IMG/VR virus record: IMGVR_UViG_3300042558_005069
Location: 40,100-104,099 of that record
DNA length: 64,000 bases
Origin: a virus
Direction: 5' to 3' (one strand)
Shown: piece after piece, positions 1-44,159 of the stretch
How positions within the stretch are numbered: the stretch's first letter is position 1
Layout of the letters: the number at the start of each line of letters is the position of its first letter
Made by a program: the position numbers and the translations under genes
Notes under the pieces: model-generated
Told to the model about the DNA's origin: nothing
The model's input: the letters and a program-made list of their open reading frames with translations, nothing else
The model's database searches: none

Positions 1-3000
1 CTATTCTGTCGATATCGTTTGCCCCAGAGGAGAGCCGCATGCGTTGTTCTCTAAATGAATTGCGTTGTCTAGTTGAAACCCCAGACCTCTTTGAAGGTCT
101 TCTTAGAACTATCCTATCCCGTGGGCCAAGATAAACCCCACCCACTGTTCTGCCGGTAATTTCATCTATTCTTCTATCCGATCCGCTTGCAAAATTTCTT
201 CTTTCCGCGCTGCCTTCTTCGTATTCGTCATGGGTTATAAAGCGGTCGGATGTATTTGCAATTCTTGCTCGATGATTGTCCGACAATACTGCCCAACTAA
301 TAGGGTCGACAATTAAATTCCTCAATTTGTCTTCGTCGTCTGTGACTTTCTCTATGTCATGGGAGTTTGAGTTGAAATGTCCCCTGGCAGTGACCATTAA
401 TTCAGTTGCGATTTGTCCGACCTTGAGGTCCTGATGATCATTCGAGCTCGATCCTCCGGTCTCTCCACCATCAAACGAGTTAGTACCGAAAGATAAAAGC
501 AACTGTCTCAACTCTTCATCTACATTTTCAGATGACTCGTTATTTTCAAGTATTGTTGCTCCACGTAATACGAGTGGTTTTTCTGGTTCTGGGACAAACC
601 ATGAATCAATAACGAACAAGTTTTCAAGAGCTCCTGGATTATCCTCTATAACACTTCTTAAAGGAGTTACGATAATATTGGATTTAGATTTTCTTTCCCT
701 GAATGAATGTCCCCTGGCTAGGTGATTCAACGTAAAGTGAATGGTTTGTCTGTGATGCTTATATACACCACCATCTTCCGTTGGGATATAACCATAGTCT
801 CCGGCTGGTCTAAGAAGTACGTTTCCAGCTTCATCTTTTACTATGTCGTATGTTGTTTCATGAACGACATAAAGATCATCTATTGAAAGATTTCCTATAC
901 CTTTTTCATCTGCGGTAGCTTGAAAATACTTTATTTGCGCTGGAGAAAGACGTCCTTCTGTTTGTATTCTTCTTTGTTCTTCTATTAGAAGCTCGCCCTT
1001 TTTCGCAAGATCTTCAAACTCCAACATCGAATCTGCGTCTCCACGCATTCCAGCATAAAGTAAAGCGTCTACATATGTTGATGCTTGGTCCCCGGAACTT
1101 TCGTAACGAGCAGCTCTTGCCGCTATCCAACGGATGGCCGTGTCGCGCCCCTCTGCCGAAGTTGGCGAAAGGCCACTTATGACGTACGGGTTTAATGGAA
1201 TAATCTTTATTTCTTTATCAGTAATTTGGCTCTTTATTTTTTCAGGAATATGACCAAAATAAATTTTATCGTTCCCTATGGCGTGAACTTCTCCACGCAT
1301 GCGGACATCTTTACCATTTCTGTCCTGATAAACATTAGACAATAACGTTTTTTGAGTCTGTTTATTAAAAGCTCCAGCTGGGTATACTTGAGCTGGGCCT
1401 CCTGAAGAAAATCTTAAATCTTCGTTTTTGAGTATCTCTCTTCTGTTTGGTCCAAGCATCTCCATTGCAAGAGAGGAAGCTGGCCCGGATCGATCACGAC
1501 CCTTTGGATTATTAACAAGCCTAAGTTTTGAAGAGGAGCTTTGATTTGTATTCTGTGGAATCCGACGTTGACGTTCAGCACCAGATGACAAACGCATATC
1601 TATGACTTTTCTAATTTGACTTCTAGCTACGTCGATGCGGTCTCTGGCTGCGCTTCTTAAATTTGTACCAATAGAAGTTCTTTTGATTAACCTATCTCTC
1701 TCTTCTATTTCTTTCCACGGCGTCTCTCCGTCCCGCAATCCAAGAAATGCACGAGCATCATCTCGTAGTTTTTTTGTAATCCATCTTTCTTGAGCGGTTG
1801 GGTCTGGATGGAGAACCGCTACTGCTCCTTCTGCCAATGCCTCTATCAGGTTTGTGTTCCCGTAACTGTGCGCCGTGCTTGCAAAAGGAAGATTTAACCA
1901 TTGCTCGTCAAATCCTGCTCCGTTCGGGTCTTTGGCTAGCGTGCTCTTTTGAATACTCTGTTGATCTATTAATGGTTCGAAACTATAATATTCTTCCGCG
2001 ACACGTAGACCTCGGTAGCGTGCCGCTCTTCCCTCAGCGGTGCCGTAGTCTCGAATGTACTGACGACCCGTCGCTTTTAGGTCTCTGTAAGGAAGTGCGG
2101 CTGGGTTAGTAGCAAAAACCCCTCCCAGCTCAGCCTCAATCATTGCCCGCATATGTATGTAATGAACGAGTTCGTGTTTAAAAACAGCAGATATAGATCG
2201 ATCCATCACTGTTGTGCTGCCAATACTGAATTCCGAGGTAAGATCTATTTCTCCCTGAGATGTTCTTCCGGTTTCAATTGCTTCCCACGCAGCAACAATG
2301 TTCAGAGTTGGGACAAGTTGATCCAGCCAGGCTGCAGAAAGCGAATCATCTGTCTGAATGTTTTTTACTATAGGGGGAGACCCGAATGTCTCCATTAGCC
2401 ATTTAAGCTCAGGACTCGCATCGAGTGAAGCTTCAACAGCTTTTCTCAAAAGATTTACATTTTGCGGAGAAAAATCAATTTCTGTCTTGCGCGATTTTAG
2501 CAATTCAATTATTAGTTTTCTCATTAATGTTCGTATTTCTTCTGGTGAAGCCCAATTGCTCGGAGGAATTGGAAACAAATCAAAAATAATTTCCATGTAT
2601 TCATCTTCACTAGAAGGCACCATTAAGTTTGCAATCTGACTTGATGATAGCCCCTGCAAGAAACCAGGAGTTGATATTCTTAGTTCAACACCCATCTCCG
2701 TTATCTGCCCATATCTATAATCCATAGATTGATGCCTCTTGAGCTGCTCTAACTCATCGCGACGCAGTGGCTTAAGGAGAGGATCAATCTTTATTATTGG
2801 CCTGTCTCTATCTGGTTTTGCAGGAGGTATTCCGACATCCAGTATTGGTCGGTCATCGTCCCCCGAGGAAAACCTTGCAGTTTCACTTTCAAAATTTATA
2901 AATCTTCTCTTAGCTGCGTCAAATTCTTCACGTGCAGTTTGAAAATTCTTTGTTCTCTCGTCTAGGAAATCTTCTCTTTGGGCCCTGTCTAGAATTCTGT

Positions 3001-6000
3001 TATCCCAACCGCGACTTTCTGCCTGATTAATCATCGCGTGCATGACCATTCCGGCAGCAGTTGCATCCTGTTCCGCTGAATGATGCCTATCGAGGCGCAC
3101 TTCAAGATATTCGGCTAGAGCGCTTAGTGTAGTAGATGCGACTCTTGTGTCTCCGCGGATGACTGATGGACCATCTTTGTTTTCTTCAGAATATTTTGGA
3201 AGAACCATTTGAGCCATATCAAGAGAATCAATGTATCCAGATGGACGCCACATAATCCCGGCCTCCGCGAGAGCATCCTCAAGGACGTTTTTGTCAAATA
3301 TTGCGTTTTGTACGCCCATTATTGCGCCCGGGCCAGCGAACTCAGCGACCATGCGATGAGCGTCCTGAATACTCATCTGCTGTGCAAGCCACTCATCGGT
3401 AAGCGGCTCTCCGTCTGTTCTGTAAAGATTCAACCTTGACCACTCTCTCAATGGTTCGGTCGGATTCATAAACAAATTTAATTTGTCTATAACTTTTCCA
3501 CCTCTCATCTTCACAAGAGCTATTTCTACTGGCTTACCATTGCTCGCACGTTCCCTGAAGCGGTCAAAGTCAATACCTGTAGTTTCGTAATCAATAAAAA
3601 TTATGTCTCTATTGTTAAATATTTCTCTTAGCTCGCGCCAAGTTTTTGCTTCACCAAATATGAAGTCAGCCTCACCTATAAACGGTCCGTAACTTGGTTC
3701 GCGGGGAAATGACGGCATTTTTACTTCACCACTGCTAAGGCGTCGGGGGTTATCGTCTGGATCATAACCAAATTCGAGAAGAGAATTTCCTTCAGTGAAA
3801 AGGTGCTTTGCTTTTACTCGCTGACTTACTATTCTGTATTTTCCTTTTCCTCCCAGATTGGAGTCTCCGTGAAGTTTTGCGTATGACCGCAATGGGCTAA
3901 CCCAGTCGCCAGCGTTTATTTTTAGATTTTTGTCAATGTGCTTTGCATTCCTAAGCATTTCTATTTCTCGACTAATTTCGTCATAGTATTCGTTTATGTC
4001 TGATATATCTGCAGAAACATACTTTGGAACTCGGCCATATTGTAAAATATGTGATTTCTGTGTTTCTAGTTCTTTTATTCTCTCATTGGGGAGTAAAGGA
4101 ACAGCACGATAGACCGTAACTAGCGCTTCAGGCTTGCCCTTGATTTGCTTTATAATTCTAAGTGCTTCTGGAGCCAACGGGTCGGTACTGGCGTAGAGGG
4201 CAGCACCGTTTGGCCCATAGACTTCTTCTGGATACATTCCGTCAGCAATATTGTGCATCGGAGCGCCACTGTTCCTATCGGGAGCCTGGTGGAAACCTCT
4301 GTAGTCTTCGTCCTTACTAAATGGAACATCGGAAGTACCGCTTGAAAATCTGTCAGACCCAAGTTTGCTATCGAAACGCCTATCAGTCACATTAATTAAC
4401 GCCGAGCGACGAGGCCCCTTTACGGGACCAGTCCCTCCAGTTGCGGCCTTCCACCATTTGTCGCCATCGTCTGTTGTCGCTCCCGCTGAAATCTCATAAG
4501 TTGGCATACTGATGCGTAATGCGTCAAGGAGGGCCGACCCAATCCCCATCCTTTTAAAATCTTCGCCTACTTCTATCATCGCCACAACAGCAGTACTGTC
4601 GATACTTTCGGAATTGTAATCAATGTATCCTGCTAGCTTCCCACTTTCATCGAAAGCAGCTAAGTATCCGTTGTACTGATCACGACCGGGGGAGTCACCG
4701 CCATGAGACAAAGTAAACCTTTTGCCCCCAACATTGAATCCGACCGGGTCATCAAACGGTTTATCTTTTCCTAGCCGCTCAATTTCTATCGTTACTTTCT
4801 GGCCTGAGGAAAATTTATTATCGTGATCCTTAACTGCTGATGAAAGAAATTTTATTGGGCTTATTTCCCCCGATGCTAGCGGAAGTTTGTTTTTAGTTGC
4901 AGCGTTCCGTGAGTTCATTTCGCTTGTAGACCATTCGTCGACTACTGACGCAGGGAGCCGATCAAGCAATAGCTTTAAGCGGAGATCTTGATTTTTTTGA
5001 TATCGCTCCTTATCTATTACTCTGCGATAGCCAACTTCTATGCCATTTCCGTTATTCAATTCCGAAAAGAAAGTAGATAAAGATTCTTTATTTGCTTTTG
5101 ACAGCATCTCTTCAGGATTCTTAAAGGATGAATAAGTCATTCCGTTTTCAGTGTAGTAACCGCTTAGGAGTTGTTCTCTTTCTGTTTTTGTAAAATATTT
5201 TTTTGTTGCGGTGTCGTTGTTTTCTGCCAAAAGCTGCCTATGCAGCGCCCCGACCATTTTTGATCTAGAGGCGGCCCCATTCCACTCAAAACCGTTCATG
5301 CCCCAATAGGTTGCTCCGTTTGAGGAATAGGCATCTCCAAATGGAGAGTCCTTCACTATGTCGGATCTGCCGGTGAGACTTATTGAATCAACTTCTAGAG
5401 CTTTCCATATATTTTCAGAGTAAGCCATGAAAGAAGTGCTAATCCCTGAATTCCTAAGCTCAGGCTTTACGAAAATTTGGTTTAAATCAACCGAGAGACC
5501 GGTATTTGTAATTGATAATTTAAAGCTAGCCGTACCAACGTCTGACAATTCTTGAACATTTGTTCCAGCTACATTTTCTTGAGGAAAACTTAATTTTACA
5601 TCAACATAAACGGGCAAAGATTCTCCCGATGCAACAACGCTCGCTCCGTAGTCCACGCTGCTTACTTGAGATGATAAAGGCAATTCTTCTTGTGCGAATA
5701 TGTTTGATCGAGAAACATCGATCAACAATTCTGATCCAAGATTGAACCTCTCTCCACTAGAGCTTTCTACTACAACATTATTTCTTAGAGGAATAGAAAT
5801 ATTGTTAAATAATTTATTCAGTGATTGCAAAAAGTTGTCTTTTAGGCTGTCGTCATCGGCAAATTCTAAGTATGAAAATCTTTCTGGCTGCTCAATATTC
5901 TTGTTTTCTGGAGTAAATAATTTTCCAGAACGCCATTGAATCGATGGTAAAACAAAGTTGACAATCATGTCTCTTGTGTCGAAAGCGTTGGTAAGTTTTT

Positions 6001-8188
6001 CACCATCTAGTTTTTGTCTTTCGACTTCTGTTTCATAATTGGCACCAGAAGAAAAGGTGTCCGAGCCACCATCGACGGAGCTAATTTCTCTATCTTCAAA
6101 GTCTATTGAAGTATTTTTATCTAAATTATAAAACTCGTGAAGGTTAGAAATTGTATTTAGCAAACCATTTAATGGTCGATTAGCAGGGGTTGCCTCTGCG
6201 AATGCTCTACCGTCATCGCTAAGTGCGTTGCTGTGTTGAAGGTTGAATTCTGGAAAAGCTTCTCTTTGCGTGTAGAACATCTCTGCCGCAATACCGCGCC
6301 TGCGGTGACCGCGTCTTGTCTGGATTTCCAAAACTTCTAGCTGGCCATCATTTGGAGCCCAAACTGACATCCTTGCTATGACTGGTGCGGTTCCTTTTCC
6401 CGTAAGGCTCCGAAGTACGTCCTGGTCATCGACATCATTTGGACCAATTGGTGATTTCTTTTTATTAAAAGGGTTTTCGCCTTGTTCGTCAAATATTTTT
6501 GCAAGAGAATTGCGTTCTTTTTCAATGTCTGACTCCAAATAGGATACGACATCTCCATTTTGCGTGACGATTATTCTATATTCAGTATCTTTATTTTTAA
6601 CTTTTTTTGAAGCGAATATATCTCCATAGTCGTGAAGATTCAGTGGTGACAGTTGCTCCATACCGCTGGAAAACGCACCAACAAGCTCTCTGTCGTTACT
6701 TAATCTGCGCTCGTACCCAATTGTTACGTTTTTCTCCTGAAACAAACTAGTTGCCTGTTCAAAAGCAAGAAGTTCTTCCGCGCTTGAATCTGTTTCAAAC
6801 ACAGAATTACCATCTACTCTTCTTTCTTCTATTAGGAGAGATATCCGTTTTCTCTCTTCTTCGCTAAACCAATTTTGCGTTTGGTCGTCAAGTCCATCTT
6901 TAATTACGCGAAGAAAATCTTGTTTTGCTTTTTCTCCAGACCACGTAAATCCATTTTTTGGCCAGTGCGTTGCCCCAATTCGATTTCCCTCTTTGTCGGA
7001 CAACCCGCCCGTATATATTCTTTTTGCGTCAATCGCATTATATATTTTTTCATTACTTGCATTAAATAAGCTACCTATGCCAAGACCCTGTGATGGCTCG
7101 TTTAGAAAGAAAGTATCGTGGATAACTGTTATTCCAGAGTCTTTTTCTCTAGTATTAAACATTATTGTCCTGGAAGATGAACCAAACTGGATTCGGTCAA
7201 GTTCCGGAGTTCCTTCTGGGAGTGCATAAGCGTTTTCGAGCATTTCTTCTGGCACTCCGGCTTTCGCCAACCGATCCATTGCTTCCTCTGACGGAGCCAA
7301 CCTCATGCGAAGCTTTATATTCATAAATGTTTGTTTTTCGGAATCTTCATCAAAAATTGTTGTATATAGCTGTTCTTCTGCCTGTTCATTAATATCATTT
7401 AAATTTATGTCCGCTAGCTCAATATCCCAGCCCTTATATTTATTACCTGGCCGGACAGAAATGCGAACCGTTTTTCCTAAATTTATTTTTTCACCGTTTT
7501 TGGCGGTAACTACAATGTCTTTTTCCAGTTCTATTTCGCTATTAAAAATTTCCGCGAGCAAATCATGTATTCTTTTTTTTGCTTCCAACCGCTCCGGTGA
7601 GTCGGCCAGTTCTTTCGTGTCTTCGTCAAAAATGTCTTTGATTGTCGTGAATTCATCTTGCTCAACAAGCAAATCACTTCTTAGTAGTTCTTTTAGTTCT
7701 TCTATTTTCTGTAATTTTTCTTGCGTTAATTCGGGCCGGGAATCAACAAGCTCTTGATATGTTGCTCCAGAAGAAAAAGTGGTTGACCTATCTGGAGATT
7801 CCTCACCGCCAAAAAGCTGACTTCCTGACGATGGTCTGGTTTTTTTGGGGGAAAGTTCCGAATCCCTAGTGCTCTGTTTTGGTTTTTTACCCTCGGATGC
7901 AGTGCCAACATATATTGGCTTTGTTGTTCCTTCGTCAGCCCAGCCGTCACCGTCTGGGTCTCTTCTTGAGCCAGTCGGCTTTCTTGTGCCGGGCTTACCT
8001 CCGGTGGGTAGGTCTATGTCTCCCTGGCTGCGCCCGCCGCGACGACGGCCAAGGCTAGGAATCCCGGAAAGCCTGTTTGAAGCATAGGAAGCAAGACGTC
8101 GACCAAGAGCTTTTTCCTCAAGGTCTGGTTCGCGGCCTTTGCGTGATTCATCAAAGGGGATGAGAAATTCATTTTCTTCACTTGACAT
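1..8188 (-). CDS. Giant polyvalent effector polyprotein A (>=2729 aa, 3' end outside window)
   Basis: ATG at 8188 (MSSEENEFLIPFDESRKGREPDLEEKALGRR...). I hand-translated most of the frame, including both ends, and found no stop. The supplied track has no complete ORF in this frame, as expected for a frame open to the edge. Contains 12 [FL][SA]SG motifs separating enzyme modules. Confidence 0.93.
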   Translation of the reverse strand, partial: MSSEENEFLIPFDESRKGREPDLEEKALGRRLASYASNRLSGIPSLGRRRGGRSQGDIDLPTGGKPGTRKPTGSRRDPDGDGWADEGTTKPIYVGTASEGKKPKQSTRDSELSPKKTRPSSGSQLFGGEESPDRSTTFSSGATYQELVDSRPELTQEKLQKIEELKELLRSDLLVEQDEFTTIKDIFDEDTKELADSPERLEAKKRIHDLLAEIFNSEIELEKDIVVTAKNGEKINLGKTVRISVRPGNKYKGWDIELADINLNDINEQAEEQLYTTIFDEDSEKQTFMNIKLRMRLAPSEEAMDRLAKAGVPEEMLENAYALPEGTPELDRIQFGSSSRTIMFNTREKDSGITVIHDTFFLNEPSQGLGIGSLFNASNEKIYNAIDAKRIYTGGLSDKEGNRIGATHWPKNGFTWSGEKAKQDFLRVIKDGLDDQTQNWFSEEERKRISLLIEERRVDGNSVFETDSSAEELLAFEQATSLFQEKNVTIGYERRLSNDRELVGAFSSGMEQLSPLNLHDYGDIFASKKVKNKDTEYRIIVTQNGDVVSYLESDIEKERNSLAKIFDEQGENPFNKKKSPIGPNDVDDQDVLRSLTGKGTAPVIARMSVWAPNDGQLEVLEIQTRRGHRRRGIAAEMFYTQREAFPEFNLQHSNALSDDGRAFAEATPANRPLNGLLNTISNLHEFYNLDKNTSIDFEDREISSVDGGSDTFSSGANYETEVERQKLDGEKLTNAFDTRDMIVNFVLPSIQWRSGKLFTPENKNIEQPERFSYLEFADDDSLKDNFLQSLNKLFNNISIPLRNNVVVESSSGERFNLGSELLIDVSRSNIFAQEELPLSSQVSSVDYGASVVASGESLPVYVDVKLSFPQENVAGTNVQELSDVGTASFKLSITNTGLSVDLNQIFVKPELRNSGISTSFMAYSENIWKALEVDSISLTGRSDIVKDSPFGDAYSSNGATYWGMNGFEWNGAASRSKMVGALHRQLLAENNDTATKKYFTKTEREQLLSGYYTENGMTYSSFKNPEEMLSKANKESLSTFFSELNNGNGIEVGYRRVIDKERYQKNQDLRLKLLLDRLPASVVDEWSTSEMNSRNAATKNKLPLASGEISPIKFLSSAVKDHDNKFSSGQKVTIEIERLGKDKPFDDPVGFNVGGKRFTLSHGGDSPGRDQYNGYLAAFDESGKLAGYIDYNSESIDSTAVVAMIEVGEDFKRMGIGSALLDALRISMPTYEISAGATTDDGDKWWKAATGGTGPVKGPRRSALINVTDRRFDSKLGSDRFSSGTSDVPFSKDEDYRGFHQAPDRNSGAPMHNIADGMYPEEVYGPNGAALYASTDPLAPEALRIIKQIKGKPEALVTVYRAVPLLPNERIKELETQKSHILQYGRVPKYVSADISDINEYYDEISREIEMLRNAKHIDKNLKINAGDWVSPLRSYAKLHGDSNLGGKGKYRIVSQRVKAKHLFTEGNSLLEFGYDPDDNPRRLSSGEVKMPSFPREPSYGPFIGEADFIFGEAKTWRELREIFNNRDIIFIDYETTGIDFDRFRERASNGKPVEIALVKMRGGKVIDKLNLFMNPTEPLREWSRLNLYRTDGEPLTDEWLAQQMSIQDAHRMVAEFAGPGAIMGVQNAIFDKNVLEDALAEAGIMWRPSGYIDSLDMAQMVLPKYSEENKDGPSVIRGDTRVASTTLSALAEYLEVRLDRHHSAEQDATAAGMVMHAMINQAESRGWDNRILDRAQREDFLDERTKNFQTAREEFDAAKRRFINFESETARFSSGDDDRPILDVGIPPAKPDRDRPIIKIDPLLKPLRRDELEQLKRHQSMDYRYGQITEMGVELRISTPGFLQGLSSSQIANLMVPSSEDEYMEIIFDLFPIPPSNWASPEEIRTLMRKLIIELLKSRKTEIDFSPQNVNLLRKAVEASLDASPELKWLMETFGSPPIVKNIQTDDSLSAAWLDQLVPTLNIVAAWEAIETGRTSQGEIDLTSEFSIGSTTVMDRSISAVFKHELVHYIHMRAMIEAELGGVFATNPAALPYRDLKATGRQYIRDYGTAEGRAARYRGLRVAEEYYSFEPLIDQQSIQKSTLAKDPNGAGFDEQWLNLPFASTAHSYGNTNLIEALAEGAVAVLHPDPTAQERWITKKLRDDARAFLGLRDGETPWKEIEERDRLIKRTSIGTNLRSAARDRIDVARSQIRKVIDMRLSSGAERQRRIPQNTNQSSSSKLRLVNNPKGRDRSGPASSLAMEMLGPNRREILKNEDLRFSSGGPAQVYPAGAFNKQTQKTLLSNVYQDRNGKDVRMRGEVHAIGNDKIYFGHIPEKIKSQITDKEIKIIPLNPYVISGLSPTSAEGRDTAIRWIAARAARYESSGDQASTYVDALLYAGMRGDADSMLEFEDLAKKGELLIEEQRRIQTEGRLSPAQIKYFQATADEKGIGNLSIDDLYVVHETTYDIVKDEAGNVLLRPAGDYGYIPTEDGGVYKHHRQTIHFTLNHLARGHSFRERKSKSNIIVTPLRSVIEDNPGALENLFVIDSWFVPEPEKPLVLRGATILENNESSENVDEELRQLLLSFGTNSFDGGETGGSSSNDHQDLKVGQIATELMVTARGHFNSNSHDIEKVTDDEDKLRNLIVDPISWAVLSDNHRARIANTSDRFITHDEYEEGSAERRNFASGSDRRIDEITGRTVGGVYLGPRDRIVLRRPSKRSGVSTRQRNSFREQRMRLSSGANDIDRI
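194..1399 (-). other. Polyprotein A module 8: unknown enzyme, possibly an H-H-type ART fold
   Basis: LYVVHETT...RQTIHFTLNHLARGH...NIIVTPL...IDSWF; two strand-associated histidines; fold assignment is speculative. Confidence 0.35.
1592..2860 (-). other. Polyprotein A module 7: zincin metallopeptidase (MPTase-like)
   Basis: HELVH at 2162-2176 plus downstream SYGNTNLIEALAEG third-ligand motif. Confidence 0.8.
2873..3727 (-). other. Polyprotein A module 6: DEDDh 3'-5' exonuclease (DnaQ/epsilon-like)
   Basis: ExoI IFIDYETTG (3575-3592), ExoII QNAIFD, YIDSL, ExoIII HHSAEQDA all intact. Confidence 0.9.
3740..4336 (-). other. Polyprotein A module 5: putative ADP-ribosyltransferase-like domain (R-S-E pattern)
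   Basis: DYRGFHQAP...VTVYRAVP...INAGDWVS..RSYAKLHG...LFTEGNSLLEFGYDP; R, S and E positions fit an ART fold (inference). Confidence 0.5.
4349..4801 (-). other. Polyprotein A module 4: GNAT acetyltransferase domain (short type)
   Basis: GKLAGYIDY...VAMIEVGEDFKRMGIGSALL...TTDDGDKWW; bounded by KFSSG (4802-4813) and RFSSG (4337-4348). Confidence 0.8.
4880..6043 (-). other. Polyprotein A module 3: GNAT-like domain, paralog of module 1
   Basis: QIFVKPELRNSGISTSF and GATYWGMNGFEW mirror module 1; the N-terminal part also matches (LFNNISIPLRNNVVVESSSGERFNLG vs IFNSEIELEKDIVVTAKNGEKINLG). Confidence 0.7.
6056..6661 (-). other. Polyprotein A module 2: GNAT acetyltransferase-like domain (short type)
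   Basis: EVLEIQTRRGHRRRGIAAEMF (R-x-x-G-x-A motif A), then HSNALSDDGRAF; bounded by FSSG motifs. Confidence 0.75.
6674..7765 (-). other. Polyprotein A module 1: GNAT acetyltransferase-like domain (long type)
   Basis: Acetyl-CoA motif A-like HDTFFLNEPSQGLGIGSLF, then GATHWPKNGFTW; bounded by FSSG at 7766-7777 and 6662-6673. Confidence 0.7.
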
Positions 8189-8231
8189 TTAGAGCAATAA
8201 TACCATTTGTTGATGGCTTAAAATGCGGAAA

Positions 8232-11008: not shown

Positions 11009-11346
11009 CTCGCATCTCGCAATCTTGGAATCACTGGATCAAATGGCTCTCTTTGAACCATGAGAATATTGTGTCGTTTTCTTAATAGTTTGCGCTCACG
11101 CTCCGTGGTTCCGCCCCAGATGCCAAAAATTTCATGATACAGCGCATAATTTAAACACGGATCGATTTGCTTGCAGTCACTGCATATCGCTTTTGCTAAG
11201 TTCGTTTGCTCATTTGCTTTTCGATACTGGACAGAGAAATCTCTTCCCTTGCTTCTTTCCGCATGAGGAAACCACATTTTTACATCTTTACCGATGCAGT
11301 CGCCTCCAGTTGGGGGTGTATCGATCCGTTCGTGTGTTGGTCTCAT
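11005..11346 (-). CDS. whiB: WhiB-family Fe-S transcription factor
   Basis: C...WFP...AKAICSDC...C...GIWGGTTERER; GGAGG RBS before the ATG at 11346. Confidence 0.9.
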   Translation of the reverse strand: MRPTHERIDTPPTGGDCIGKDVKMWFPHAERSKGRDFSVQYRKANEQTNLAKAICSDCKQIDPCLNYALYHEIFGIWGGTTERERKLLRKRHNILMVQREPFDPVIPRLRDAR

Positions 11347-11375
11347 TTCCCCTCCTATGGATTTAATTTTGCATA

Positions 11376-11798: not shown

Positions 11799-11807
11799 TT
11801 AAGGTCT

Positions 11808-12173: not shown

Positions 12174-12259
12174 GCCACAACAATAGCCGAAATTTTGCCT
12201 CCCGTGCAACACATAAACTATTTACGATTTTTTTTAAAATCCATGTTTAGTATTTAGTC

Positions 12260-12895: not shown

Positions 12896-12908
12896 GTACA
12901 ATAATTAA

Positions 12909-15318: not shown

Positions 15319-15391
<73 letters not shown>

Positions 15392-15393
15392 CT

Positions 15394-16548: not shown

Positions 16549-16550
16549 AA

Positions 16551-16949
16551 TTATTTAAACTCGGACCAAGTTTTGTTTCCAACCCCAAAGTACTCTCGAG
16601 CGTAACCTGACTCTATGATATCCAAATTCAAGCAAGCAGTTTTTACATCATCAATGTCTTCTGAGGAAAATATCCTTGCGAGAACCCGTCCGTATTTGTC
16701 ATTTTTGTCTGGGATTGTATTCACGTAAACCCATTTATGCTTGGAAATCCAGTCTTCTGTGAATTTCTTTGCGCTCAGACCCATCTGCTTTTCGGCTAGG
16801 TCTTTTGTTCTTGTCTCGGGCGTGTTGACGCCATATAGGCGAACTCTAATTTTGTGGTGAATATTGAAACCAAGATCAATCATTAGATCGACAGTGTCTC
16901 CGTCTACAACCCTCAGTACGGTAGCTCCGTACCAAAAGCGAGCACTCAT
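16551..16949 (-). CDS. Thermonuclease (SNase-like)
   Basis: RVVDGDTV, RVRLYGVNTPE, DKYGRVLA. Confidence 0.92.
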   Translation of the reverse strand: MSARFWYGATVLRVVDGDTVDLMIDLGFNIHHKIRVRLYGVNTPETRTKDLAEKQMGLSAKKFTEDWISKHKWVYVNTIPDKNDKYGRVLARIFSSEDIDDVKTACLNLDIIESGYAREYFGVGNKTWSEFK

Positions 16950-32685: not shown

Positions 32686-32690
32686 CTCTA

Positions 32691-34400
<1,710 letters not shown>

Positions 34401-34535
34401 ATGGCTCCTATTGTGTGGGTGAATGACCATCGGGACATTGACCTATAAACTGTGTGGCAAACTATAACGTATCACGTTCCGAGCCTTAAAATTAGCAACA
34501 TTCAATGGCTTTAAGAAAAATAGTTTTTATCTTCC

Positions 34536-37500
34536 TTATTTGTTGATTATTTCTGGCGAGGTTTTTCTTTTTCCCTTACGTCCAGGAGCAGAAGGCTTGT
34601 ACACCGTCGTGCCTTCCCTTAAGCGGGTCTGGGCATTCCTCAACTGCTCACCGCTGAAGATGTCTTCTATTGTGTGGTTTGTGCCAAATATTTTATTAAA
34701 TTGATCAACGAATTCCTGCAATTCGGACCTCGAGAATCTAGGCACGTCGCCTAATCTTTTTGAAAAAGTCTTACCTCTTCTTTTTGCGGCAGCCTGCAGT
34801 ACGGTCCCCATTTCCCTGCTATTGATAATAAATTGCCTACTTTGAACACTGTTAAGGCTTGAACCAGGGAATGACCTATCAATGAATTCTGTTAAAGCTT
34901 CATACACGTTGGCCTTGGATGCCAAAAGCTCCTCATCCAGCTTTTGGCCTGCCTTATTTACGCCGAATACATCGCGAGCATTCGGGATGACCCCAGTTCT
35001 GATCATTTCCGCAATATAGGCAATGGGTACTCCATCTTTTTTCCACTCTTTCACGGCGTCTTCACCAAGTCCAACGTCTACCTTCTTCACGTCGTCTGGA
35101 TCAAGTTCGGCGTCTACCTTCTTCACGTCGTCTGGATCAAGTTCGGCGTCTAAATCCTCTCCAAAAGCTTTTTCCAGGATTGGCTTAAGTTGCTTCGGCC
35201 ATTCATCTTCCGATATGCCGAGATGGTCAAGAAGTTGCGATAAAGTAAAATCTGCTCGCTGAACACGGCTACCCTTGCCTCTGCGGGCGTTGCTGGCAAT
35301 ATCAGGGGGAAGGGCCTCGAAAGCCTCGCCCATAGTTCCTTGATAGCTTAATTCTACCTCTGCCTCTGAGTCGTCCCTTGCGGCAGGAGAATTCTCGAAC
35401 TTGCCTACGGCGTTGAATCGTCTTGCTCCGTCCTCCAGGTCATCAAACTCTTCCGCGGTAAGCATCTTCCCTGACCCATAGATCTCCTCCTCGGCGATCC
35501 CCCCTATAAAGTCTCCCCTGTCGTGCCAGTATGGATAAGCGTCTGCTCCAAATGTTTCGATAATAAAACGATCTCTCATGTTTGCACGGCCGGTATTTTC
35601 GACGAGTCTTTCTATGGCGTTCATGCCTTCTTCTTCGGCTTCCATATCGGATACTGGAGAAAACAATCTCCACCCGCTAAATTCTGGCTGACTACCAATT
35701 TCGGCCAATAGATACCTTACGGTGTCGTGCGTGAGCGCAGCCGTATCGCCCTTAAGCTTTGCTTCTTCCGTAACGTTAAGTCCAAGGAGTTTTGCTAGTT
35801 TCGGGATGGTAAGCGGCTCTGACTGGGTCCAATATACCCCCACTTTGGGAGTAGCCACGTCCACGACCTCCTCCCCTTGTAGCTCCGAAGTTATAGTTCC
35901 TCTGGATATATCTTCTTGCCTGCGCCATCCAGTAGGGATTCTGACGGTGTCAAGTAGTTTGCTTATCGAAAGCATCCATGAATCACCGGAAGGATCATTG
36001 TTTGCAAAATTGTCGGTTGTTTTACCGATCTTAACGACTCTTGATCCGTCGCTTTGCTTTCTTGCTCGCATCCTTTCTCCGACTTTTATGATGTTGTCAT
36101 TAATTTTTTTTGCACGATCATTCTTCGATGTTGAATTTTGATCTGCTGGCATATCTAAGGCAATGCCTGTCTGATTGAAGGCGTTCCAGAATTGCATCGC
36201 ATAACGAGTTACTCTGTCTCTATCTTGAGGGTCAATGCGCACATCTGTACGTATTCCTGCGAGCTCTAGGGCAGATAGGCGCTGCTGCATTCCTGCCCTA
36301 TTCTCAAATCTGCTCACGCGTCTTCCGAACCTGCCCTCTGGAGTTCCAGTTATTTTTGAAGCCCTACTCGAACCTTTTGCTACATCAGGAGCTTCCTCGG
36401 ATGTTTCCGAAGGTTCCGCACCTGAAGAGAATCCAGCATCAAAATCTTCATCAAAATCATCATCATCATCATCTTCAGCCTCGATCGTGCTTATTTCGTC
36501 AAGCTCGTCAAGCACATTGTCAGCGTCGTCCACAGTCAGGTCCTCGTCTGAAATCCCCCGCCCGTCATCTTCTCCCTCTGGAAACTGAGCGGCTGGGTCA
36601 AACATTGGACCATCGATAATTTCGCGTGCTCGTTCTCTCATTATGCGGACGGAAGCATCACGTAACGTTTCTTCCGAAACATTTGCGTCGGCAAATTCAT
36701 CCATCACTTCTTTTCTTCGTTTGATGAACCCTTGTGTTGCTACGTCAGGTACGCCTATTCGTCTCATTTCAGCAATTAATTCATCATCCGGAAGACTCAG
36801 GACGCTTCTTCTTGAAGCGTTAAAATCGGTTAGGTCTTTCCCTTCCGCGGCATACTCTTCTATTTCTCTATACACTTTTGGCAATTTGTCGAGTGATAAT
36901 TCACTCTCTCTGTCAAAATCTTCTGGCAAAATTTTACGTTCGACACCGTCGCGAATGAGGTCTGCAATTTCTTTACGCTTTTGACCTTCGGCAAAGTGCG
37001 CCATCCACATTCTCGGTGATAGTGATATCGCTCTCATAGCCCTAGTTACGACCACGTGTTGAAGATTCATTTCTTCTATCCAGCCCGGAGGTCCCGAACC
37101 GTTGCGCTTAGCTGCTTCAAGAATGTCTACGTTTAAGTCATCGTCAGGATCTGTAAAGTCATCAAGCACCAGAACAAATTTTCCTTCTTTGCCTTTTGCT
37201 GTTGTTCCAGTTTGTATGACGACATCACCACCGCGTTTTTTTGCACTTTTGCGAACAGCATCACCAATGAGGTTTATTATTCTTGTAGCTTCTTCTGGGT
37301 CATCTTTTGCATCTATGACGAATCCGTCATAATCTCTGCCCTTTGCGCGGCTCACCTTCGGGCCAACTCCGAAGCTCAGTCTCGTCCTCGACTGAAGCCC
37401 TAGGCGATCAAGTATCCCTAAAGTGTCGGACAGGTATGCTCCATCGAAGTTCCTTCCGGAAGTATCCGGGTACTTGTTCGGATCTGCATATACCGCCTGA

Positions 37501-40500: not shown

Positions 40501-43500
40501 GAACCCGCTGCCGCATCAACTCCGATAACTAATTTTTCTTGACCGTATACAGCTGCTAATCCAAGATCAATAATGTCTCGCTGTTCATCCGTAGGAGGAA
40601 CAAGAAGATTAAGAAGAGACTTAACGTCTGTTGAAGCAGGAGTTCTTCTTACGGGTCTTTTTTTCGATCCACTACGAGCATTTATTGGATTTCCGCCACT
40701 GGCGAATCTTCCGTCGAGCGTAAGCGCCCTGCCCTGAGAGTCGGACACAGAGGCAATATCGCCATACATACGCTCTTCTTTTGACTGAGAGCCATATTTT
40801 CTTCTGTCTTTTGAAGAAGAAAGGTCTGAAGTGTCAGTAACGTCGTCCTCTTTGTCGAGGAAGGGAATTCCACTGGAGAAACGTTTGTCGATGTTGTCCG
40901 CTCTATCAATAAGGTCAATGTCTCCCATTGGGCCGCTGATTGGTCTGCTTGTTGGTACTTTTGGTGAATCCTCATACCCTTCTAACATTGAAAGCGGAAC
41001 GGTGTCTCTTGATGACTTTTTAGCTTTTCTTTCGTTATCCTCCATGCCCGATAGACGCCGCAATGTTTTGGATCTATTTAGCATCCAGTCAACGGCTTGC
41101 TGCGCTTGACCCATGGCAGTCTTGATAGCGTTTGGATCGTTTCTAATCTTTTCTGCCCAGAATTTTAGATATCCTATGTGATCTTCTCTAACCATGGGCG
41201 AAATGCCAAGCATTCCCAGCAAAAAGGAAGACCCAACTTCTGCTATGAGCTCCTCAAACGCGTACGCCGGTGACCCATATTTTGCAACTTGAGGTCTATT
41301 GTTCCGGCTTGGATGCCCAGTCCAGTGCGTCATTTCGTGCAATAGGGTTGAGTAATAACTTTCCGCATCATTAAACGTTTCGAACGGCGGCATATTTATG
41401 AAGTCGCCGTTTGGAGAGAAAAATGGCCCGCCAACATTTGACTCTCTTAATCTTGGATTTAATTCTTTAACTATCGCTTCTGCATTTTTAACACGAGCTT
41501 TTGGACTCAGGTTTTCCAGGTCGATTTCTGGCTTATACATTTCAGGAGGCAGACCATCAATATCCGCTACGTTATAGACTTCTTCAACTTTGTACTGACG
41601 TGGATCTGATCCAAGTATCGGAACTAAGATATTTACAGGACGAGCATTCGGCGATGCTTTCCCTTTAAATTTTTTCCATTGACTTATCCCTGCCCATTTA
41701 TTGGTTTCGTAACCACGTGATACCGCTATGGAGTTTAACAACATACGGTTGGTCCCCTGGTAGGACCAGCTTTTTTGACCTTGGTTCTTCTTTGTTGGGT
41801 TTCGGGGGTTGTGCTCCCCTTCTCTCCATGGCATATTCCATTTGAATTTTTCTGGATTATTTACAGCTTCTTGAAGCATTTCAAGAATTTGTTTGCCAAT
41901 TTGAGCGTAGTATTCATCGATTACGGCTCTGCCCTCAGCTGTTGCCGTATCTACTATGTCGCCAGGCTTTAGAGAATTATTACCGTCTCCTCCTGAAGAA
42001 AACTTTCCAGTAGAAGAAACTTGGTTAAAAAAGCCATCGAACTTAAACCGCTCATCTATGGTTTTGTCGCTTTCGCGTTTTCTTAGAAAATCCAAATAGT
42101 TTTTGTTTTTTGCCTGAGCCTGCTTCCTGGCCGCAGACATAGATCTACTTATCTCTTTTTTTGGTTTTGCTGTTACTATTTCCCGCGAACCACTGCCTAG
42201 CGGCCGAGCTTCTGTTCCCGCTACCGAGGAGCGCTCTGGGGCTTCAATTTTACCGGGGACTTTTGGATTATTGATTGAGCCTGGACCGTCTGGTGTTGGG
42301 TCGGGCTGCTCAAGAGAAGTACCACGAAGGAATATACCTTCGCCCACAATCCCATTGAGGTTGCGGTCAATAGCTGTCCTTGGATCAAAATTCTCAGCAT
42401 TTGGGGTCGAGAAAAATCTACCTGCAGATCTTGCTCCCCCGATGCCGGGTTTATTATTGGCTCTACTTCCTATGGCTCTTCCGAGCCTGTAGGCGGATAC
42501 CTTAAATTCTAGATCGTCACTGATTAAACTTTTTTTTTTTAAATTATCTAAAGCTGTATCGATAGCGTCAATCAACTCATAAGAAACACCATTTGTTATT
42601 ACTATTCCTTCTGGGTCAACATACGTATCTACCTTATGGTAGTCAAATACTGGATCTAACGCTTGCTTTACGTGAAAAGCATAATCTGTGGATACTGGCA
42701 GGAAATACGGCTTTTCTGGTTCAAAAGAATCTTCAAACGTACCGAACTCGGCTAGATGTTTGAATTTCCGCTTTTTTCTTCTTTTTCTTTTTACTATTCC
42801 ACGCAGTCCGGCAATAAACAGCTCTCCTGGATACTTGAACTCAAAGTCAGCAATATATTCGTTTTCGTTATCCTCTGTCTCGAATTCGTATTCTTTTTTG
42901 GCCATAAAGTCGCCTTTTACAACACCTGGTGGGATTATGGCAAAGCGACACTTCCCTTCAGGCTCTATTGCCATGTCGATAATCTGGCAGCTGTTGTCCT
43001 TGTTATAAAAAACGCAGTTTGAGCATTTAACCCCAATTCCAGCAACTGGATTTTGTGCAGCTGGTTTGTAGCCTGCCCAAATTCCATCAGAATCTTCGTT
43101 TATTTTTCCGTGACGCTTTACGATCTTTAGTAGTGCGTCTCTGAGGTCTGACTCTTCTTGATCCAGGTCATCGGCACTAATTGGCTTGCGGCTCTGCCCT
43201 TCGTACTGCACTGCTGGTAGGGGTACCACCGTCATTCCGTTTGGCCCTGGCTTTATGGCAATGGGAATCGATGGCATCTGGCTCGGACGAACAACCCTCT
43301 GAGGATCTACCGGAGGCAACCCGCCAACAGGCATAACTGGAGGTGAAGTTTGAGGCTTAGCAACGATCACTATTCTTTCTGGAGCGCCAAACATAAAGCG
43401 GCCATTGCCACCTCTGGAAAAATGACATTTATACTTTTCCATTGAATTTGACTGGTCTGTTCTGTTGAAGGAGACCATTCCGTTGTCTTCGTCAACTTCC

Positions 43501-44159
43501 GTCACAGAGACTTGATTTCCAAGAACTTTTTGCAATTCTATTTCTAGCTCATCGCTCATGGATGGACGTTGCTGAACCATAGGGCCGGAAGGGCTCTCGA
43601 CGTCGTAAGTTCCTGGCATCCCTGCTTTTACCGAAATAGTGCCTGTTAGTTGATTTGCTCCGTGGAGAACTGGGCTAACTTCGTAGAGTTCAAGCTCGTA
43701 GATTACGTTTGCTTGAGATTTTTGGTCAAATTGAGCTCTAAGAGTTTTGTAGCCTATTGACCACTCTTGGTCTTCGCCAAAAAAAGCAACATTAGCGAAT
43801 GCTTCTTTGCCCTTTTCTGAATTTAAATTAAACTGGACACGGGCAAAAAGTCCTCCTATGCCAGCCATTTTCATTTTCATTGGCAGTCTTGGATCGGTGG
43901 ACGGAACTTCGTATATCTCTAGAACTTTGCCAATCGGGTCATTCCAGTTATGACCCCACACCACACGAGGCTTGCGCCGCATCAGGCTTTTGGTAAATGC
44001 TCCGCTCTGAACGATATCGCCAACAGAATCTTTGTTCCCTATTCCGGAAACGAAGCACTCGACCATGCCTTGAGCCTCGTCAAGATTCAGTACGCCGGAT
44101 TTTCCGTTGACAACGGACGACATTGAACCAGCTTTATATTCAAAAGAATTTCCGGACAT
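34536..44159 (-). CDS. Prohead protease-polyvalent fusion, polyprotein C (3207 aa): HK97 protease, HiPIP-like, ArdC, SF1 helicase, unknown C-terminal domain
   Basis: Protease: DSVGDIVQSGAF, WGHNWNDPIG, EWSIGY, LYEVSPVLHGAN. ArdC: WNMPW...YQGTN...LLHEMTHWTGH...YAFEELIAE. Helicase: AAAGSGKTT, DEAQD, GDDRQQI, LTQSFRF, VVVTRA. FSSG/FASG at 41991, 40869, 40695 and 36420. Confidence 0.92.
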   Translation of the reverse strand: MSGNSFEYKAGSMSSVVNGKSGVLNLDEAQGMVECFVSGIGNKDSVGDIVQSGAFTKSLMRRKPRVVWGHNWNDPIGKVLEIYEVPSTDPRLPMKMKMAGIGGLFARVQFNLNSEKGKEAFANVAFFGEDQEWSIGYKTLRAQFDQKSQANVIYELELYEVSPVLHGANQLTGTISVKAGMPGTYDVESPSGPMVQQRPSMSDELEIELQKVLGNQVSVTEVDEDNGMVSFNRTDQSNSMEKYKCHFSRGGNGRFMFGAPERIVIVAKPQTSPPVMPVGGLPPVDPQRVVRPSQMPSIPIAIKPGPNGMTVVPLPAVQYEGQSRKPISADDLDQEESDLRDALLKIVKRHGKINEDSDGIWAGYKPAAQNPVAGIGVKCSNCVFYNKDNSCQIIDMAIEPEGKCRFAIIPPGVVKGDFMAKKEYEFETEDNENEYIADFEFKYPGELFIAGLRGIVKRKRRKKRKFKHLAEFGTFEDSFEPEKPYFLPVSTDYAFHVKQALDPVFDYHKVDTYVDPEGIVITNGVSYELIDAIDTALDNLKKKSLISDDLEFKVSAYRLGRAIGSRANNKPGIGGARSAGRFFSTPNAENFDPRTAIDRNLNGIVGEGIFLRGTSLEQPDPTPDGPGSINNPKVPGKIEAPERSSVAGTEARPLGSGSREIVTAKPKKEISRSMSAARKQAQAKNKNYLDFLRKRESDKTIDERFKFDGFFNQVSSTGKFSSGGDGNNSLKPGDIVDTATAEGRAVIDEYYAQIGKQILEMLQEAVNNPEKFKWNMPWREGEHNPRNPTKKNQGQKSWSYQGTNRMLLNSIAVSRGYETNKWAGISQWKKFKGKASPNARPVNILVPILGSDPRQYKVEEVYNVADIDGLPPEMYKPEIDLENLSPKARVKNAEAIVKELNPRLRESNVGGPFFSPNGDFINMPPFETFNDAESYYSTLLHEMTHWTGHPSRNNRPQVAKYGSPAYAFEELIAEVGSSFLLGMLGISPMVREDHIGYLKFWAEKIRNDPNAIKTAMGQAQQAVDWMLNRSKTLRRLSGMEDNERKAKKSSRDTVPLSMLEGYEDSPKVPTSRPISGPMGDIDLIDRADNIDKRFSSGIPFLDKEDDVTDTSDLSSSKDRRKYGSQSKEERMYGDIASVSDSQGRALTLDGRFASGGNPINARSGSKKRPVRRTPASTDVKSLLNLLVPPTDEQRDIIDLGLAAVYGQEKLVIGVDAAAGSGKTTTMKMLAAAINAEFSVDDILQRFAGDAVTRKQQLLKKANYLAAKYPAKGFEDVDVFWPESTDEKTLIQAIRELGESRGVTEDNKPTIYYTVFGKENRLEAAESFPGNTGIGTTTQLAYWSLRQGIAENDSPENRILNAPSMRRKIELLTDYARRRSFKNRNQPITVDGYDQARRQHDSESMQFIGYRPNYKDLGYSTVETGKDMLAFLEKAGVSLPRRTISVTRGKGKKAKTKNIEVYDVPFTMPDGNNWIEVDFFGEYLAMAFRRWSLSSNPEVTKDVFNLSFREQTDTMTGRFSTKKAQKKTQAIDEQLQNVPDKLMDEWLSYVKKAADELVDGNGMLLPTQGQLPKLLLLADPDLSTNPGALGHGSKDSLANEKIPAQFNIRRGDVVYYGKNNKFYDEVIDPQTGRISSIRQWDKSEGEPWVVVSIDGSRGKLKKQYASKEKPISLFAIDEAQDLNEVWEELLNRNKERVSTIAVGDDRQQILGFNGSKNIMQSISPDFVPKLTQSFRFGSLLGYMATLILGRENKLLQDLLDEGKPLTAEQWKYVEGAADTAAKRHIENIFSFVKAGDFGAANSVNDTVKRLYGVSFDSYLNGENFAGMTPKARAKALTELRKEIDDAKTKIAKALSTRVVDEKEEVYFGNLPDMALSRGKVQTVHLAVQTWKDLFLESAVFLGGRIDNPETLRDSQNLTQNEFDQLVKPLSSKDKPQIMLTQSAWQEAVDFFQHIDWAEKTAAGLNPGRKPEKSPLIGDYWDMATIRERFKLKSKSPGNSLYQLLFQPVDGQPAGSQTMFASQMLVSLRGGGVVLADGTKSHRSSSIRPMRDSLDLGLMEFEEKTLSQILSSTDRSSKSSDVNAATKIFVVQPDAKGTKDAVYFELEYDFKDGQDAINPDDFQVIVEKIPDQPGERLRVTSKWTKADGTPKFETIAEFGEAETVEELEKIAFRRMRNKLVMTATAGRSNTGTDPRETFYATKQFKWTGKLILSGDGVDTGRPQAVYADPNKYPDTSGRNFDGAYLSDTLGILDRLGLQSRTRLSFGVGPKVSRAKGRDYDGFVIDAKDDPEEATRIINLIGDAVRKSAKKRGGDVVIQTGTTAKGKEGKFVLVLDDFTDPDDDLNVDILEAAKRNGSGPPGWIEEMNLQHVVVTRAMRAISLSPRMWMAHFAEGQKRKEIADLIRDGVERKILPEDFDRESELSLDKLPKVYREIEEYAAEGKDLTDFNASRRSVLSLPDDELIAEMRRIGVPDVATQGFIKRRKEVMDEFADANVSEETLRDASVRIMRERAREIIDGPMFDPAAQFPEGEDDGRGISDEDLTVDDADNVLDELDEISTIEAEDDDDDDFDEDFDAGFSSGAEPSETSEEAPDVAKGSSRASKITGTPEGRFGRRVSRFENRAGMQQRLSALELAGIRTDVRIDPQDRDRVTRYAMQFWNAFNQTGIALDMPADQNSTSKNDRAKKINDNIIKVGERMRARKQSDGSRVVKIGKTTDNFANNDPSGDSWMLSISKLLDTVRIPTGWRRQEDISRGTITSELQGEEVVDVATPKVGVYWTQSEPLTIPKLAKLLGLNVTEEAKLKGDTAALTHDTVRYLLAEIGSQPEFSGWRLFSPVSDMEAEEEGMNAIERLVENTGRANMRDRFIIETFGADAYPYWHDRGDFIGGIAEEEIYGSGKMLTAEEFDDLEDGARRFNAVGKFENSPAARDDSEAEVELSYQGTMGEAFEALPPDIASNARRGKGSRVQRADFTLSQLLDHLGISEDEWPKQLKPILEKAFGEDLDAELDPDDVKKVDAELDPDDVKKVDVGLGEDAVKEWKKDGVPIAYIAEMIRTGVIPNARDVFGVNKAGQKLDEELLASKANVYEALTEFIDRSFPGSSLNSVQSRQFIINSREMGTVLQAAAKRRGKTFSKRLGDVPRFSRSELQEFVDQFNKIFGTNHTIEDIFSGEQLRNAQTRLREGTTVYKPSAPGRKGKRKTSPEIINK
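35075..35152 (-). repeat. Perfect in-frame 36-nt tandem duplication (DAELDPDDVKKV x2)
   Basis: cgtctaccttcttcacgtcgtctggatcaagttcgg twice plus a 6-nt partial copy. Confidence 0.95.

Follow-up and report, generated by a model that had tools for sequence, protein, structure and literature searches.

Several eukaryotic viruses encode a protease that reads a short motif, partly inside the virus particle, as is the case for the picornavirus 3C protease, the adenovirus protease AVP and pS273R of African swine fever virus. In tailed phages, the nearest experimentally known system is the motif-directed maturation by the prohead proteases of T4 (gp21), phiKZ and 201phi2-1 (gp175) and SPN3US (gp245), where one enzyme recognises a short motif in many head and ejection proteins and cuts there (PMC10052503, PMC5694885). 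The T4, phiKZ and SPN3US enzymes are of the S77 type and read motifs ending in Glu, and almost every cut strips one N-terminal propeptide (PMC10052503). For the phage polyvalent proteins, Iyer, Burroughs, Anand, de Souza and Aravind (2017) predicted processing by built-in zincin or assemblin-like peptidases; they defined no cleavage signal and placed the assemblin-like peptidases at C-termini (PMC5512222). Here we examine the last 64 kb (the window) of a 104,099-bp IMG/VR viral contig (IMGVR_UViG_3300042558_005069), which holds three giant open reading frames (ORFs), A, B and C, with recurrent copies of the peptide [FL][SA]SG. Comparisons of this locus with related phages make it likely that (R/K)-[F/L]-[S/A]-S-G is a lineage-specific proteolytic processing signal read by a phage-encoded protease.

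Like the T4, phiKZ and SPN3US systems, this locus has a short consensus motif that is shared by several proteins, although cleavage is a prediction here. Unlike in T4 and phiKZ, the only prohead-type protease is of the S78 type and fused to cargo, and the motif, φ-[S/A]-S-G (φ, hydrophobic), is located between enzyme modules and in the tape measure protein. Since neither an S77 enzyme nor a motif ending in Glu was found, the locus would function like T4/phiKZ head maturation without being a member of that group. With the polyvalent proteins it shares giant multi-effector chains with ArdC-N, MPTase, helicase, GNAT and nuclease domains, but it differs from their published description in the N-terminal S78 domain, the defined lineage-specific junction peptide and the dispensability of the ArdC-type MPTase. 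As in viral polyprotein processing, a short site recurs between functional units. The likeness to the substrates of 3C, AVP and pS273R, in which units are joined by a short virus-specific motif, is one of analogy only: the present virus belongs to the tailed dsDNA phages, its units are accessory enzymes instead of core replication or capsid proteins, and the code varies between close relatives.

Junction peptides between enzyme modules

A preliminary description of this DNA had counted 19 copies of [FL][SA]SG in the three giants and three more in the tape measure protein, and all of these were found again at the same positions (Table 1), with R or K preceding 13 of the 22 copies. Giant A extends past the window edge, its C-terminal 1835 aa preceding the window, and this part adds two copies, so that the giants hold 21 copies and the contig 24, confined to giants A, B and C and the tape measure protein. 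The motif had not been seen in the replication or metabolic ORFs; indeed, it is missing from all other ORFs of at least 120 aa on the contig, except for one antisense ORF within A. In A, B, C and the tape measure protein, 12, 3, 4 and 3 copies were observed against 0.34, 0.29, 0.31 and 0.14 expected from per-protein shuffles (n = 2000), in which the highest count reached was 3-4. FSSG is also the top 4-mer of the three giants, with 13 copies against approximately 0.16 expected. The order of the residues matters, since FSSG occurs 14 times and each of its permutations at most once, and G follows FSS in 14 of 15 cases. The consensus of the junction context reads x-D-x-R-[F/L]-S-S-G-A. Among the 19 sites there are 18 distinct 12-mers, using both Ser codon families. 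Selection therefore acts on the peptide, and a DNA repeat is excluded.

These sites are joints between modules. The spacing units reported for A (364, 202, 388, 151, 199, 285, 423 and 402 aa) were reproduced, and, as had been claimed for A, the sites avoid enzyme cores: none falls within any Pfam domain envelope. The envelopes reflect the polyvalent make-up of the giants and comprise S78 (31-174), ArdcN (749-840), MPTase-PolyVal (892-1015) and P-loop/UvrD (1202-1716) in C, and GNAT (1171-1224) and RNase_T (1530-1712) in A, which has further modules. The 12 residues on each side of the sites are enriched in polar residues, hydrophobic ones making up 22% against a background of 29% (p<5e-5). In an AlphaFold2 (AF2) model of A 1100-1800, three domains are folded (query residues 31-155, 219-319 and 390-680), and the segments between them have a predicted local distance difference test score (pLDDT) below 50. 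Four of the five sites in this model lie in or at the ends of such segments, typically 4-5 residues before the next domain, while the last helix of the exonuclease domain ends at the fifth.

The same boundaries emerge from database homologs. A search with A 1100-1800 against 1.84 billion representative proteins gave 2779 matches, the local alignments of which form three blocks that coincide with the motif-bounded modules 1126-1281, 1281-1484 and 1484-1773. Library-wide, 233 of the 324 ends (72%) of high-scoring segment pairs (HSPs) with homologs lie at most 12 aa from a site, where 16.5% would be expected. Among close relatives, 9 of 53 HSP ends coincide with sites against 2.7 expected (p=0.0008).

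A peptide code that differs between related phages

Related phages were collected as 80 loci linked through the portal protein, 56 of which hold a giant ORF downstream of the portal gene. These 56 giants contain 416 [FL][SA]SG sites per 140,820 aa, compared to 26 sites per 239,553 aa in all other ORFs. The peptide itself varies by clade, the variants being RLSSG/RFSSG, KLSSG, GLSSG, SLSSG, GFASRG, RGMASR, RGFAS[ST], GLAS and GFSS[ST], and one genome uses one variant across its proteins, as illustrated by five GFASRG copies in the second giant of genome G001 and nine RFSSG copies in the B-like protein of the complete genome G003. Up to 14 junction peptides occur in one chain in the present phage and up to 18 in relatives. 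Two related giants, P0048 (4980 aa) and the product of L169 2-3433, have long pentapeptide-like repeats (GADL/GANL, 28-47 copies) besides their cargo modules.

The individual modules can be followed from one code to another. The exonuclease module of A recurs between two RFSSG peptides in G003 and between two GFASRG peptides in G001, and library-wide it is flanked by [VIL]SGKM[ST], ITGAM, GS[RK]S, GMRS, ISGRMG, GSMS or GLASST; another module is flanked by PLFQR or MFSVK. Single alignments cover residues 579-887 of P0042, 427-707 of P0060 and 1920-2216 of P0037, the respective peptides of these proteins being located at 578 and 889, 425 and 710, and 1926 and 2224. One module with 70% identity over 550 residues is preceded by GVSGKMT in P0060 and by KKLSSGT in a 4250-aa protein of a genome with the LSSG code, and in both proteins the identity starts directly after the peptide. 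In the complete 137.8-kb genome G006, SG[RK]M occurs 16 times, namely once in a 1698-aa ORF that we took, by size alone, for a putative tape measure protein, once in an 802-aa S78 core protein, four times in the B-like protein and one, three and five times in three giants; it is not found elsewhere in 44,007 aa.

In related phages the modules are kept, but the [FL][SA]SG peptide is not kept everywhere and is instead swapped genome-wide. Judged from these comparisons, the junction peptide is a lineage-specific, genome-wide code. Because the joints stay in place while their peptide differs between relatives, the most likely role of the peptide is to mark where a phage protease cuts.

The code also reaches the tail. 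The sites in the tape measure protein hold their position and follow each genome's own code, with KR-FASG near residue 40 here and KK-LSSG in relatives. In a Gly-rich stretch near residues 590-610, the FASG of this phage is replaced by LSSG in relatives and by MSSRG in the RGMASR genome, where the tape measure protein has an additional MASR at 1354. To our knowledge, the enzyme that processes the tape measure protein is unknown for most phages. In the major capsid protein (MCP), the tripeptide L-[ST]-S is found at most 12 residues upstream of the conserved KSIG in 22 of 22 distinct loci with an [FL]SSG code. At the same spot, [MF]-G-[FY]-K is found in the SG[RK]M and TGAM lineages, L-E-S in G001 and S-A-S in G002. 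This co-variation of the MCP junction with the code is suggestive, the loci compared being phylogenetically non-independent. The peptide EIKS is present twice in the MCP propeptide (window 20003-20014 and 20135-20146, minus strand) and four times in the N-terminal MCP region of the cultured Gordonia phage DalanDe (L307), and it may be the maturation protease's own propeptide site.

Candidate proteases and alternative explanations

Two candidate proteases are built into the giants, both of them unremarked in the preliminary description. The N-terminus of giant C matches Peptidase_S78 (PF04586, E-value 1.3e-10, 42 bits against a cut-off of 21, residues 31-174). H70 (in WGHN) and S134 (in EWSIGY) are invariant in 25 sequences and, going by the family, would form the catalytic pair. 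The domain is single-copy, no second one being found in three complete relatives, and its context is typical of the family, with the gene located after that for the portal and before that for the MCP, which has a propeptide of approximately 100 aa. Like the HK97 gp4-type proteases of actinophages, it has the S78 match, the conserved His and Ser, roughly 40% identity to the proteins from Gordonia, Arthrobacter and Mycobacterium phages and a gene between portal and MCP. Unlike these, it is followed in the same chain by about 3000 aa of cargo; the C core (1-719) consists of the S78 domain plus approximately 540 aa, and its homologue in ISGRM-type and other-code lineages is a stand-alone, core-only protein of about 800 aa. 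Across all lineages with a φ-[SA]-S code the S78 core is at least 77.6% identical. In the cultured myovirus DalanDe, gp27 (L307 16608-21509) is a 1633-aa 'capsid maturation protease' whose S78 domain is close to the C-terminus and in which no recurrent junction peptide was seen, making this phage a possible tractable outgroup.

The second candidate lies in giant B. Its core (1-1315) lacks the motif and is kept in position and sequence in 80 loci found with an alignment query, a single-sequence scan having given no relatives. We predict that this core contains a zincin metallopeptidase domain. H596, E597, H600, Q603, E695 and E699 are invariant in a 34-sequence alignment, and HExxH is present in all non-truncated B-like proteins of these loci. 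In the AF2 model, a small sheet is accompanied by the HExxH helix and a later helix with Glu residues. In these features the domain resembles the minimal zincins (lethal factor, Wss1 and M90 types), which have HExxH, a Glu on a later helix and a small β-sheet before them. The leads to these proteins are weak: a fold match to lethal factor (1yqy, Z 7.6, root mean square deviation 11.2, 235 residues aligned) and language-model feature values of 0.87-0.90 to Wss1-like, ATLF and M90 clusters. Unlike in minimal zincins, a phage-specific core of 1315 aa surrounds the domain and contains an invariant KFRCPPGTPAANQFTD segment; neither a Pfam match nor, by profile search, a PDB sequence match was obtained, and Foldseek with a 1000-aa B model returned helical-repeat noise only. 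B residues 239-262 (window 31900-31980, minus strand) form an invariant segment (KFRCPPGTPAANQFTD...GSNCFG) that is modelled with low AF2 confidence; together with HExxH it is the only recognisable part in the distant P0027, P0034, P0059 and P0062.

The ArdC-type module of giant C also has an intact HExxH (PF08401 and PF18818, the latter with 117 bits; HEMTH at 941). This MPTase is absent from two 100% complete code-bearing genomes, and it is therefore not a general reader of the code; it was also not found in the partial genomes G002 and G005.

Provided that the joints are cut, we give the S78 domain a chance just short of even and consider the B zincin a good second possibility, some other enzyme being rather improbable. 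Presence or absence cannot separate S78 and the zincin, because both are universal, and the closest S78 pairs of differing code class did not separate them either, the classes being too fine. We lean slightly towards S78, the standard enzyme of capsid maturation, in view of the code-like MCP junction and of the high identity of the S78 core in all lineages that share the tripeptide φ-[S/A]-S. Assemblin-fold proteases read three residues, for example (L/I)-x-E or (V/L)-x-A↓S (the arrow marks the cut). Zincins typically prefer a hydrophobic residue at P1' (directly after the cut). The explanation that it is not S78 but the zincin that cuts, before the hydrophobic residue (R/K/G↓F/L/M) and either in the cytoplasm of the producing cell or after ejection into the next host, would accommodate several observations. 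Nearly all codes align as (G/R/K/A/S)↓(M/L/F)-(small)-(S), the B core with its invariant HExxH and downstream Glu occurs in every code-bearing lineage (SGKM, ITGAM, GSMS, ISGRMG and GMRS included), and its quick divergence (22-41% identity) parallels the changing flanks of the code. Furthermore, an enzyme that could act outside the capsid would make the sites in the tape measure protein easier to explain. Besides the weakness of the structural leads, however, this explanation has to face the equal universality of S78, the code-like tripeptide at the MCP propeptide junction, which favours a maturation protease, and the GS[RK]S code, whose core lacks a conserved hydrophobic residue. Taken as a whole, it remains tentative.

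We regard it as unlikely that the peptide is left uncut and serves as a short linear docking motif for packaging, chaperoning or tail threading, read by a lineage-specific binding partner. Sites in disordered linkers would suit binding equally well, as would their presence in the tape measure protein, which also passes through the tail, but docking would not need a motif at each boundary or directly before each folded domain. The wholesale swaps between chemically unlike codes (LSSG, SGKM, ITGAM, PLFQR) look like drifting protease specificity, and the same proteins have two built-in candidate proteases. Moreover, chains of 3000-4500 aa of unrelated enzymes are hard to picture working or being ejected uncut.

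A host protease, with code differences reflecting host differences, is a far less probable cutter. Prp-like enzymes cut at F↓A-S (site FF↓ASKKG in Staphylococcus phage 80alpha and L27) when they trim the ribosomal protein L27 and the capsid proteins of some Firmicute phages, and F-A-S and F-S-S are superficially similar to this site. However, in Prp and L27 sites A-S is preceded by K-L-N-L-Q-(F/H)-F, whereas the flanks here are rich in D, G and R, and the upstream LNLQ context was not found in them. We know of no Prp in Actinobacteria, the group to which this phage is linked by its WhiB gene and by an S78 domain that groups with actinophage proteases, and phages with 60-70% identical portals differ as widely as LSSG and GFASRG. 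Lastly, although the linkers are polar and rich in Gly and Ser, the idea that the motif is a by-product of such linkers, or of the common ancestry of repeated linkers, can practically be dismissed given the dependence on residue order, the approximately 0.3 copies per protein in shuffles, the unrelated flanks, the differing codons and the swapping of the peptide while modules persist.

Several points weigh against a processing signal read by a phage protease. The case for cutting is one of comparative sequence evidence throughout. The S78 core is about 80% identical between lineages with differing flanks (R/K or G upstream; G or R/S/T downstream), and its identity to the core of lineages with ISGRM, a very different code, is still about 70%, so that S78 divergence does not obviously track the code. 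The full code is missing from the MCP junction, and a code on a tail protein is awkward for a protease thought to be active inside proheads. A stretch of 1425 aa in giant C has no site, the B core was unmatched among cultured phages (tblastn, 50,697 records), and neither the clade patterns nor the MCP co-variation are phylogenetically independent.

Gene neighbourhood and proposed processing

The source is an uncultured phage from a lake, and its host probably belongs to the Actinobacteria. The contig was estimated to be 65% complete (CheckV) and has a GC content of approximately 44%. WhiB proteins are a hallmark of actinobacteria and actinophages, and a WhiB-family gene (window 11086-11304, minus strand; PF02467, 52 bits) together with this GC content suggests a low-GC freshwater actinobacterial host. 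The similarity of the S78 domain to capsid maturation proteases of Gordonia, Arthrobacter and Mycobacterium phages likewise indicates an actinobacterial host. The genes at window 58.4-64 kb are those of a myovirus and encode sheath, tube, tail assembly chaperone and tape measure proteins. Two further metagenomes yielded contigs (L117 and L118) that match the tape-measure region at 100% identity and reach past the window end; the same phage is thus present in several samples, and the full tape measure protein can be judged to be approximately 1660 aa long.

The head module, on the minus strand, has the order portal, giant C, a 579-aa poly-acidic protein, giant B, small ORFs and MCP (Table 1). 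The acidic protein has long Glu/Asp/Met runs and a Cys-rich N-terminus, and its place between C-like and B-like genes is kept in about 80 loci. It gave no family match, a scan of its own sequence found no junction code, and it may be scaffold-like. Beside the head module are a cytochrome P450-like ORF (window 15394-16548, plus strand) and a TauD/TfdA-family dioxygenase gene (16949-17944, minus strand), which are unusual auxiliary metabolic genes for a phage, as well as a single tRNA-Arg(TCT) gene (15319-15392, plus strand). Consecutive genes at window 52413-54948 (plus strand) encode a ParB-like protein, a PAPS-reductase-like protein (phrog_2302) and a second ParB-like protein, and may form a DNA-modification or anti-restriction cassette.

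Table 1. Location of the giant proteins, their modules and junction peptides, and neighbouring structural genes; positions are those of the window.
Feature	Position	Strand	Remarks
Portal protein	44256..46358	-	directly upstream of giant C
Giant C, 3207 aa	34536..44159	-	core 1-719 with protease, ArdC module, helicase block, C-terminal module; 4 junctions
Peptidase_S78 (HK97-type prohead protease) domain, C 27-178	43626..44081	-	H70, S134 invariant
Junction C720 K-FSSG, C core end	41991..42002	-	motif scan and HSP ends with relatives
ArdC-like module, C 724-1093	40881..41990	-	ArdcN and MPTase-PolyVal, HEMTH at 941
Junction C1094 R-FSSG	40869..40880	-	motif scan and HSP ends with relatives
Junction C1152 R-FASG	40695..40706	-	motif scan
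Junction C2577 G-FSSG	36420..36431	-	motif scan and HSP ends with relatives
579-aa poly-Glu/Asp/Met protein	32691..34430	-	between giants C and B
Giant B, 2524 aa	25111..32685	-	motif-free conserved core 1-1315, then cargo; 3 junctions
Predicted zincin metallopeptidase domain, B ~490-720	30526..31218	-	HEFAH 596-600 at 30886-30900
Junction B1316 R-FSSG	28729..28740	-	motif scan
Junction B1456 R-FSSG	28309..28320	-	motif scan
Junction B2015 S-FSSG	26632..26643	-	motif scan
Major capsid protein (MCP), 461 aa	18923..20308	-	N-terminal propeptide (delta-like domain) of ~100 aa
MCP residues 94-104, QLTSSEIKSIG	19997..20029	-	code-like L-[ST]-S just upstream of conserved KSIG, mature N-arm start
Giant A, window part 2729 of 4564 aa	2..8188	-	cargo module chain; 12 junctions in window, 14 in total
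A 1-137, basic Gly/Pro-rich N-terminal leader	7778..8188	-	candidate capsid-targeting module
Junction A138 T-FSSG	7766..7777	-	HSP to G003 B-like 2367 starts here
Junction A506 A-FSSG	6662..6673	-	HSP to G003 B-like 2367 ends here
Junction A712 T-FSSG	6044..6055	-	motif scan and HSP ends with relatives
Junction A1104 P-LASG	4868..4879	-	pLDDT block 33
Junction A1126 K-FSSG	4802..4813	-	folded GNAT-type domain begins 4 aa later
Junction A1281 R-FSSG	4337..4348	-	pLDDT block 30
Junction A1484 R-LSSG	3728..3739	-	exonuclease domain begins ~5 aa later
A 1488-1772, RNase_T-type exonuclease module	2873..3727	-	in other genomes flanked by their own junction peptides
Junction A1773 R-FSSG	2861..2872	-	motif scan, HSP ends, AF2 model
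Junction A2200 R-LSSG	1580..1591	-	motif scan
Junction A2260 R-FSSG	1400..1411	-	motif scan
Junction A2666 N-FASG	182..193	-	motif scan
Junction A2719 R-LSSG	23..34	-	motif scan
Tape measure protein, first 901 aa	61296..63998	+	3 junction peptides
Tape-measure site 36 KR-FASG	61401..61412	+	KK-LSSG in relatives, same position
Tape-measure site 594 G-FASG, Gly-rich stretch	63075..63086	+	relatives: LSSG, or MSSRG in RGMASR lineage, at about the same place
Tape-measure site 647 G-FSSG	63234..63245	+	motif scan

The junctions are probably cleaved. The preliminary description had proposed a dedicated cleavage site, and the module boundaries, disordered linkers, genome-wide peptide swaps, copies in the tape measure protein and code-like MCP tripeptide are consistent with this proposal, the cut itself being what we infer from them. 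Its further proposal of a cocktail of effectors delivered by the virion agrees with the position in the head module, the N-terminal fusion to a prohead protease and a shared N-terminal leader, and it is from these features only that packaging and delivery are deduced. All three giants share one layout, in which a motif-free N-terminal part, the proposed anchor, is followed by cargo enzymes that fold on their own (ArdC, helicase, GNAT, exonuclease and others), with the code peptide in a flexible linker at every joint. The anchors would be the S78 core in C, the 1315-aa zincin core in B and the 137-aa leader in A. Via these anchors the precursors would enter the procapsid, the joints would be cut in the head, and the freed modules would exit together with the DNA; this sequence of packaging, dicing and co-ejection is suggested because of the layout of the giants, the T4 and phiKZ precedents and the polyvalent-protein hypothesis (PMC5512222). 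The S78 domain of C would cut after φ-x-Ser, in the way that T4-type and herpes-type assemblins cut after a three-residue motif, and the same signal would act on the tape measure protein and probably on the MCP propeptide.

The leader of A recurs in over 30 A-like giants, and some relatives have it at the end of the C core (residues 543-664). It holds the sequence DPDGDGWxDEGT, to which a stretch near C 549-580, just upstream of FDP...NGIVGEG, is weakly similar (BLAST E-value 1.7); these stretches of A and C may be a common anchoring element.

We did not find a paper that describes the junction code. On a wider scale, we see an about even chance that freshwater actinophages and distant lineages each have a private, fast-changing code of 4-6 residues, read by their own built-in protease and marking giants, tape measure protein and capsid propeptide, so that cassettes can be swapped freely and yet be released correctly. 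If true, phages would have their own version of the polyprotein processing of eukaryotic viruses, in which the code co-evolves. If the joints are indeed cut, motif-directed head maturation would gain HK97-type proteases or a new zincin as enzymes and tape measure proteins as substrates, and the phages would offer a natural set of orthogonal protease and site pairs. The sites would also reveal which parts of giant phage proteins, thousands of which lack annotation, are separate functional units. They would further explain how a variable set of anti-defence and takeover enzymes can be delivered without a gene, a promoter and a packaging signal for each of them.

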